Positions 8,830-9,986 of a stretch of DNA of 64,000 nucleotides are shown here, piece after piece; the first letter of the stretch is position 1; every line of letters starts with the position of its first letter. The translations under genes were made by a program, and so were the position numbers. The stretch spans positions 10,292,001 to 10,356,000 of the forward strand of contig NC_090356.1 in assembly GCF_035084215.1 (NCBI RefSeq), read 5' to 3'. The DNA comes from Heptranchias perlo (lineage: Eukaryota). The notes beneath the pieces were generated by a model. The model was not told the DNA's origin. It searched no databases and saw only the letters and a program-made list of their open reading frames with translations.

Positions 8830-8977
8830 GAAATTCAAAACAAGGCTCCAGCAGAATCAGGACAGTTATAGGTTGAGTGATTTCAAAAGTGATGTGCCAT
8901 CCCACGCATAAATCACCCAAAACATTTTTTGTAAGTCTTTTCCGCTGTCATCTTGTGTGTTGTCAGTCACCTCGGGT
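8830..8977 (+). repeat. Donor of the 148-bp direct duplication found inside PLE #2 (9270-9417)
   Basis: 147/148 identical by eye, with the one difference T8881 vs A9321. Confidence 0.95.
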
Positions 8978-9177
8978 GAGAATAAAAATATGGTTTGTAA
9001 CATATGGAATACATTTTTTTTAAATCGTCATATCATTAAACCAACCTTTTCAGATGATTTGTGTAAGGGGAAATGCTTTTACGATTTGGTCCTGTGTTAG
9101 AAGCCTGGGATAGGTTTTGCTGATCCTCAGATCTCTGAGTGAACAGAATCAAACCAAGAAACAGCCACCCAAAATGT

Positions 9178-9558
9178 AAACAATTTTACAACACCAAGTT
9201 ATACTCCAGCAATTTTATTTTAAATTCACAAGCTTTCGGAGGCTTCCTCCTTCGTCAGGTGAACGATGGGAAATTCAAAACAAGGCTCCAGCAGAATCAG
9301 GACAGTTATAGGTTGAGTGAATTCAAAAGTGATGTGCCATCCCACGCATAAATCACCCAAAACATTTTTTGTAAGTCTTTTCCGCTGTCATCTTGTGTGT
9401 TGTCAGTCACCTCGGGTTTCACATCGTTCACCTGACGAAGGAGGAAGCCTCCGAAAGCTTGTGAATTTAAAATAAAATTGCTGGACTATAACTTGGTGTT
9501 GTAAAATTGTTTACAATTGTCAACCCCAGTCCATCACCGGCATCTCCACATCATGACT
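9178..9558. mobile_element. Palindromic Penelope-like element insertion #2 with 148-bp captured host DNA as loop
   Basis: Inverted arms of about 90 bp; 11-bp TSD ACCCAAAATGT at 9167-9177 and 9559-9569; tail on the right ending CATCATGACT. The loop 9270-9417 duplicates 8830-8977. Confidence 0.93.
9427..9465 (+). ncRNA. Minimal hammerhead motif; mirror copy at 9225-9263 (-)
   Basis: UUCAC-CUGACGA-A-GGAGG(AAG)CCUCC-GAAA-GCUU-GUGAA. Confidence 0.75.
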
Positions 9559-9986
9559 ACCCAAAATGTGGCAGTGTCACTCTATGCAGGTCACACTGAT
9601 GGTCAATTCCCAGAATGTACCAGTTTCAATGTGCACAACACTCTGATACTGTAACTTCTAGAATACAACTTAAGGCTACCTTTCTTTCTCTCTCACTCCT
9701 CAGTACAGTACTAAGACAGGGAAGGCCAAACTTACTAACAAGGTCAGTCTTGCTGTCAATTAATACCCTGTGCTCTGCTCCGCAGCTCCTGCCGAACACA
9801 AATTGAACTTTGCCCCTTCCGCTATGCTTTACTCCTTGGTGCTCTCCTGCATTCCCATTCCACTCTACTATGCTCCTTGACGCCCACTGTGAGCTACTCC
9901 ACAGTTCAAATTCAATAAGACCATGCTGGACATTACAACCACACACCAGGCCCCCAGATCATCATAAGTAATGCCACAGGAGTGCA

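Follow-up and report, generated by a model that had tools for sequence, protein, structure and literature searches.

A Penelope-like element insertion in a shark genome with a copy of neighbouring host DNA between its inverted arms

A head-to-head insertion of a Penelope-like element (PLE) in a 64-kb window of shark DNA (the window is the whole stretch analysed, 64,000 nucleotides) encloses a copy of host DNA that lies nearby. In this insertion, referred to hereafter as copy 2, positions 9270-9417 are a direct-orientation copy of 8830-8977 (147/148 identical, E 3e-70 by self-comparison), the sole difference being T at 8881 versus A at 9321. The match stops abruptly at both edges, and 189 nt separate the end of the donor from the left TSD. 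A second insertion of the same family, copy 4, contains a shorter loop that was copied locally in the same geometry. Our preferred reading, which we hold with moderate confidence, is that the copy-2 unit was produced in a single event by templated end joining of twin PLE cDNAs, the opposite resected flank serving as template.

Six copies of one element family

The best RERE matches in the window were 93-99% identical in protein comparison, which identifies the host as a cartilaginous fish. Two RERE coding exons are listed in Table 1; beyond those at ~56321-56621 and 22647-22718, none were found within the window. PLE copies 1-5 are downstream of the exon at 22647-22718 on this minus-strand gene and are probably intronic, a placement judged from that exon because the next one is outside the window. 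Decayed LINE-like ORF fragments in the six-frame listing (~33300-36600, 43100-44700, 47000-48400 and 60700-61900) are presumably of CR1/L2 type, judging by motif. Five of the six PLE copies are packed into 13 kb (3919-16747) of the 64-kb window, a possible local hotspot. An imperfect short palindrome at 47234-47291 (83%, 60 nt) has no relation to the PLE family.

Self-comparison and a sensitive search recovered six copies of the PLE family in the window. Each is a head-to-head pair of arms, of which one is tailed and the other tail-less, bounded by a TSD of 11-14 bp. The hallmark of EN+ PLEs, inverted 5'-truncated copies with a tail of 30-40 nt at one end, was present in 6/6. The 49 aa encoded in copy 6 were 94% identical in a protein search to the C-terminus of a named shark protein (P0004) that has RVT_1, and P0006, another match to this peptide, carries Pfam GIY-YIG; Pfam GIY-YIG had no match on P0004 nor on the 49 aa of copy 6. 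Copy 2 is tied to copy 6 by ~91% DNA identity. No RT region of the family was found within the window. By these protein matches the family qualifies as an EN+ Penelope-like element, the mark of which is an ORF with RT and C-terminal GIY-YIG endonuclease. The assignment to PLEs in the initial annotation was borne out by the copy-6 peptide match, the arm anatomy and the TSDs.

A hammerhead-like core with stems I and II is predicted to fold as expected on the sense strand at 9426-9466, and we take its CUGANGA core to be a hammerhead-type motif. The Rfam hammerhead gave no match at E ≤ 5, and two microRNA-precursor matches were far under their gathering scores and driven by the hairpin. The hammerhead-like stem II has the junction of copy 3 (11758-11961) within its hairpin, and this hairpin could be the source of the joining microhomology. 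At the primer ends of the six TSDs, G follows the apparent nick in 7/12 and the nick falls between T and G in 5/12, a pattern that is in part a bias from the way TSDs are delimited; the anole PLE, in contrast, is reported to prefer ATT. Shark gene models for isoforms of XRCC5, FAM210B and FAM204A (P0003, P0018 and P0022) contain the PLE C-terminal peptide, either by exonisation or as an annotation artefact.

Table 1. Positions in the window of the PLE copies, the parts of copy 2, the two loop donors and the RERE exons.
Feature	Position	Strand	Description
PLE copy 1	3919..4285		Head-to-head, 12-bp TSD; spacer of element sequence plus ≤4 unassigned nt
Donor of copy-2 loop, host DNA	8830..8977	+	5-nt microhomology at start (8830-8834); no element homology
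Left TSD copy, copy 2	9167..9177	+	3' end would be primer of tail-less cDNA; 3-nt match to element
Copy-2 tail-less inverted arm (pLTR end)	9178..9274	-	Inner 5 nt common with donor
Copy-2 loop	9270..9417	+	Direct copy of 8830-8977; strictly non-element part is 9275-9416
Copy-2 tailed arm, element sense	9417..9558	+	1-nt donor overlap; tail of ~40 nt at 9519-9558
Minimal hammerhead-like motif	9426..9466	+	CUGANGA core, 5-bp stem II, GAAA, stem I; fold z -2.8
Right TSD copy, copy 2	9559..9569	+	Perfect 11-mer
PLE copy 3, other subfamily	11758..11961		Near-perfect palindrome, 13-bp TSD, no host loop
PLE copy 4	14375..14641		Head-to-head, 12-bp TSD, tailed arm left, non-element 19-nt loop at 14513-14531
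Copy-4 loop donor	15203..15225	+	22/23 identity, E 1.3e-5
PLE copy 5	16492..16747		Head-to-head, 14-bp TSD, blunt junction, no host loop
RERE coding exon	22647..22718	minus	24/24 aa versus named shark RERE
PLE copy 6	50905..51996		Arms of ~510 bp, 96% alike; 13-bp TSD; 51447-51596 is the C-terminal 49 aa of the endonuclease domain
RERE coding exon	~56321-56621	minus	Near-identity to named shark proteins

Local copies at two junctions and the origin of the arms

The TSD of copy 2 (9167-9177 and 9559-9569) is a perfect 11-mer with just these two occurrences in the window (n=2), and the arms (9172-9273 and 9417-9518) are 97% complementary and 143 nt apart. At the left junction the overlap between arm and donor is GAAAT, 5 nt, or 6 nt when scored against the family sequence because base 9269 differs from donor and family alike; this base, which adjoins the junction, fits neither and is left unexplained by our best model. 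The overlap at the right junction, between the tailed arm and the donor end, is 1 nt. In-register overlaps of at least 5 nt occurred at 12/4079 random flank positions (0.3%). These measurements agree with the initial annotation, which had described the direct 147/148 copy, a distance of ~190 bp to the insertion, the perfect 11-bp TSD around the unit and overlaps of GAAAT on the left and 1 nt on the right. Its spacer of 148 nt is correct as the length copied and too long for the gap between the arms, since 148 includes both overlaps.

Against PLE copies 1, 3, 5 and 6 (four of the other five), 8830-8977 gave just chance matches of 7-12 nt, and within the window it has no further copy. On these grounds the donor was rejected as a part of the element or another repeat, which upholds its earlier description as non-element DNA. 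It was also rejected as a coding exon, the six-frame translation having no long ORF and the RERE comparison no match there. A tandem-repeat origin of the duplication was discarded because no array is present at the locus, and two separate insertions at one 11-bp site because the length of the TSD is the norm of the family. Folded as RNA, the copy-2 unit is predicted to be one long hairpin (-214 kcal/mol), a trivial outcome for any palindrome. Nothing points to a function for its hairpin loop; the loop-bearing insertion is a scar with no evident function, and no phenotype is implied by the copied loops.

Copy 4 is a mirror image of copy 2 in which the rules are unchanged. Its loop, together with the start of the adjoining arm, matches 15203-15225 at 22/23 positions, and this donor is 561 nt to the right of the TSD. 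An exact match of 16 nt arose for 4/3000 shuffled loops anywhere in the window and for 7/20000 real 19-mers within ±1 kb, while the true loop had a best match of ≤10 nt in 92 other 2-kb tiles. The loop reads as two rounds: 15209-15216 after a 1-nt overlap, then a 4-nt re-annealing followed by 15203-15225. It closes in a 6/7 match to the tail-less arm, and such a match occurs at 0.3% of random positions. In both copies the loop is in direct orientation, the donor is on the tail-less flank, the overlap with the tailed arm is 1 nt and the microhomology with the tail-less arm is 5-7 nt. Locally copied loops thus number two (n=2), one of which, copy 2, was pre-selected by the initial annotation. 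Because copy 4 has the geometry of copy 2, the local-templating reading is strengthened and the direction of synthesis can be deduced; the earlier proposal that the two cDNA arms were joined by locally templated synthesis gains support from it.

Non-element spacers of >4 nt were present at the junctions of 2/6 copies (2 and 4), and both map within 600 nt, in direct orientation and on the tail-less side. Set against 22/3598 for L1, 2/6 for PLEs gives p=6e-4 (interval 4-78%), a comparison on which we place no reliance, given the pre-selection of copy 2 (1/5 otherwise) and an L1 pipeline that was not built for such events.

The tail-less arm reaches deeper into the element than the tailed arm in copies 1, 4, 5 and 6 (by ~23, 10, 6 and 15 nt, respectively), while the tail itself is found on the tailed arm only; copies 2 and 3 are uninformative in this respect. 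Since each arm of these four copies has element sequence missing from the other, neither arm is a fold-back copy. Together with the constant TSD, this asymmetry points to two separately primed cDNAs as the source of the inverted arms. In vitro, a PLE cleaves and extends both strands and two RT start sites bound the tail (PMC11167929), and the anatomy of the six copies agrees with both results. Self-priming has been proposed for PLE palindromes (PMC3846280), a reading with which the arm asymmetry disagrees. Both arms of copy 2 carry a private variant absent from copies 1, 4 and 5, so the two would come from one source RNA type.

A TATAAA is present in copies 1 and 6 (4144-4149 and 51830-51835) and is conserved in two subfamilies. 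Transcription starts ~30 nt past a TATA box. Measured from TATAAA, copies 2, 4 and 5 have the inner ends of their six arms at positions 30, 31, 31, 32, 37 and 42, those of copy 2 being almost symmetric (30 and 31). The 4/6 short arms that end 30-32 nt past TATAAA would be the result of RT run-off at the 5' end of the RNA, a post hoc reading. The D. virilis promoter is described as TATA-less (PMC2377424) and gives no support to the idea.

The age of the loop was compared with that of the insertion. Eight arms of the young subfamily had 7 differences in 998 positions, or 5 private substitutions once the variant common to the copy-2 arms is taken out. One difference between donor and loop was seen in copy 2 versus 1.5 expected at equal age, a comparison of low power (0 differences would have p 0.23). 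The counts are compatible, in a weak sense, with a loop that may be as old as the insertion.

A model for joining the cDNAs and its alternatives

In the model we propose, the PLE endonuclease would cut both strands 11 bp apart, as the TSD suggests, and both 3' ends would prime RT at two internal start sites in the pLTR RNA, giving one tailed and one tail-less cDNA, which fits the observed arm anatomy. Since the two cDNA ends have the same sequence and are not complementary, annealing of one to the other is impossible. The flank on the tail-less side would be resected for at least 350 nt (~600 nt in copy 4), and after this resection of the 5' strand the exposed strand would have the polarity needed to template the tailed cDNA. 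The 3' end of the tailed cDNA may then land on the single strand with 1-nt pairing and be extended away from the break, for 147 nt in copy 2 and in two short rounds in copy 4. Synthesis would end where the new strand complements the tip of the tail-less cDNA (5-7 nt), and annealing, fill-in and ligation would leave a direct copy of the flank between inverted arms. As to the polymerase that made the loop, we lean slightly towards Pol theta, and the PLE RT, after running off its RNA, is a serious candidate. The iterative rounds in copy 4 suggest Pol theta; the 1-nt landing at the apparent 5' end of the RNA suggests RT jumping (PMC2666801).

Unused matches bear on the direction of synthesis. In copy 2 a nearer match to the 3' end of the tail-less cDNA, at 9068-9074 (5-7 nt), was not used, nor was a nearer perfect 8-nt match at 15118-15125 in copy 4; in both copies the match used is the first 3'-terminal one along the path from the 1-nt landing site. 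A counterpoint is that synthesis on the inferred path would have passed, without using it, an internal match of 6 nt at 8891, which in its family version is 4 nt from the cDNA tip. An extra endonuclease nick at the donor end (between GT and G, like both copy-2 nicks) was considered and rejected, as the copy-4 landing site differs.

Other routes to the same structure were weighed against this model. A near-perfect palindrome could have been inserted first and later broken at its centre by cruciform or hairpin cleavage, host end joining adding the templated patch. Unspaced inverted repeats form cruciforms that are targets of nucleases, and revision by centre breaks has been cited (PMC3300023). 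The near-symmetric ends of the copy-2 arms (30 and 31) are as expected from a perfect precursor, such a break would leave ends with the geometry of the insertion intermediate, and the age test gives no separation from a one-event model. However, copies 3 and 5 have survived with next to no spacer, the copy-2 arms are at least as long as the arms of the loop-free copy 5, which is no sign of trimming, and a symmetric break gives no reason for both donors to be on the tail-less side (chance 1 in 4). The loop-free copies 3 and 5 and the side bias speak mildly against later repair of a centre break, the strongest of the rivals but a route that we rate as unlikely. Considerably less probable is a route in which strand invasion by the tail-less cDNA, into the flank on its own side or the sister chromatid, began at the 5-7-nt microhomology; synthesis would run towards the break, and the extended end would be joined almost bluntly to the tailed cDNA. 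Priming in cis would yield an identical product with the longer microhomology as primer, and an SDSA-like model of this kind is cited for L1 templated insertions (bioRxiv 10.1101/2024.08.27.596794), but it leaves nearer, equal or better priming sites unused in copies 2 and 4, the copy-4 primer would carry a penultimate mismatch, and the template strand required would be the one lost by resection.

The position of both loci downstream of a minus-strand RERE exon allows for a jump of the RT to nascent RERE pre-mRNA (minus strand) at the site, which it would then reverse-transcribe. A directly oriented copy could arise with the top-strand cDNA as primer, and L1 chimeras with other RNAs have been described (PMC13174262). 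For this route the primer would have to be the tail-less cDNA in copy 2 and the tailed one in copy 4, whereas copying from DNA needs one geometry, and the route predicts neither the side nor the closeness of the donors, inverted copies being equally expected; we give it a shade less credit than priming in cis. Assemblers are troubled by inverted PLE structures (PMC8557442), but the donor/loop substitution, the clean TSD, the junction microhomologies and the parallel second case, copy 4 with its iterative synthesis, make an assembly or read artefact highly improbable. Equally hard to credit is single priming with fold-back, in which a lone cDNA, after copying local DNA, would have folded back and served as its own template for the second arm. 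Self-priming of this sort has been proposed for PLE palindromes (PMC3846280), and the common variant of the copy-2 arms, absent from copies 1, 4 and 5, fits it, copy 2 alone being compatible; 4/6 copies, including copy 4, have element sequence unique to each arm, and the route is contradicted for copies 1, 4, 5 and 6 unless one-sided deletions came later.

Templated end joining of the twin cDNAs has consequences for PLE integration. Published accounts treat the way in which PLEs form their inverted structures as unresolved (PMC8557442, PMC11167929). With target-derived DNA between the arms, the inverted junction must have been open while on the chromosome, and the asymmetry of the arms in 4/6 copies argues for two separately primed cDNAs in PLE integration. 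A broader proposal, tentative and rather doubtful, starts from identical twin-primed cDNAs whose synthesis often continues to the very 5' end of the RNA. As such ends would not anneal, tens of percent of PLE insertions would be closed on resected chromosomal DNA hundreds of bases distant, copied by RT or Pol theta, and in every case the tailed cDNA would lead. If loops are indeed common, they would document, across the genome, both the second half of PLE integration and how far germline ends are resected, and sharks would often gain local duplications in this way.

Comparison with known insertions

The shark copies resemble the inverted-pLTR insertions of EN+ PLEs (Penelope/Poseidon type) in being head-to-head and 5'-truncated with a 30-40-nt tail at one end and a short TSD, and they share with EN+ PLEs the C-terminal GIY-YIG ORF, with a putative hammerhead-like motif as a further likeness (PMC3846280, PMC8557442, PMC11167929). 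They differ from the EN+ PLE insertions described in the available text of those papers in that the shark junction has a copy of the target flank. In Adineta vaga, host DNA is found between pLTRs, with Pen1 spacers of 0.9-1.5 kb and an NRPS gene (PMC3846280); both cases thus have host DNA foreign to the element enclosed by pLTRs within a TSD. The A. vaga cargo is described as having moved to a new site between pLTRs in direct orientation, and the accessible part of that paper (PMC3846280) mentions no target-flank origin for it, whereas the shark cargo is at an inverted junction and originates 189-561 nt away.

For L1, 22 templated insertions were counted among ~3600 solo insertions, with local DNA, typically <250 bp, taken from within 15 bp (bioRxiv 10.1101/2024.08.27.596794), and three templated insertions are shown in Fig. 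S10 of another report, in which S10B has pieces from up to ~1 kb away plus slippage (PMC11702581). Like these, the shark loops duplicate <250 bp of local genomic DNA into an insertion with an intact TSD. L1 templates are typically within 15 bp, whereas the shark donors are 189 and 561 nt away, and the twin-primed arms of L1 are mostly non-overlapping whereas PLE arms have the same sequence. The distinction from L1-type 3' transduction drawn in the initial annotation is sound, as the cargo comes from the target flank and is at a 5'/5' junction. The literature searched, which had the classic PLE structure papers outside its scope, described no target-templated DNA at inverted PLE junctions. The available portions of PMC9977147, PMC13174262 and bioRxiv 10.64898/2026.07.22.740005 contained no PLE precedent, and a literature search for extra nucleotides at L1 inversion junctions gave no match. 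The novelty claimed earlier therefore stands for the PLE inverted-junction case within that literature and falls for the process, which is known for L1 at <250 bp. With templated insertion at retrotransposon junctions known from L1, the advance is in PLE mechanism and not in a new class of event.

In TMEJ, an inserted direct repeat is explained by one end using the opposite, resected end as template, and first rounds of synthesis that abort are a typical feature (PMC7165422). The shark loops are alike in their direct orientation by intermolecular priming, poor first pairing, iterative rounds and closing microhomology (PMC7165422). Both are direct repeats of the flank of at least 5 bp with junction microhomology or iteration, the iteration being in copy 4. 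TMEJ insertions are typically 3-30 bp (full span 1-157 bp) with a template within 30-50 bp, and against this the 147 nt copied from 189 nt away in copy 2 and the donor at 561 nt in copy 4 are atypical; at 189 and 561 nt, both templates are beyond the 50 bp by which TMEJ is recognised (PMC7165422). The shark loops work like TMEJ, yet they are outside its canonical definition.

Template jumping is reportedly a property of the R2 element. At LINE 5' junctions, template jumps leave extra nucleotides, as in ZfL2-2 (PMC2666801). The likeness to the shark loops is that a cDNA end is extended on a non-element template with minimal pairing (PMC2666801). The patches left by LINE jumps are single-primed and are at the junction of element and flank (PMC2666801), whereas the shark patch is between two cDNAs.
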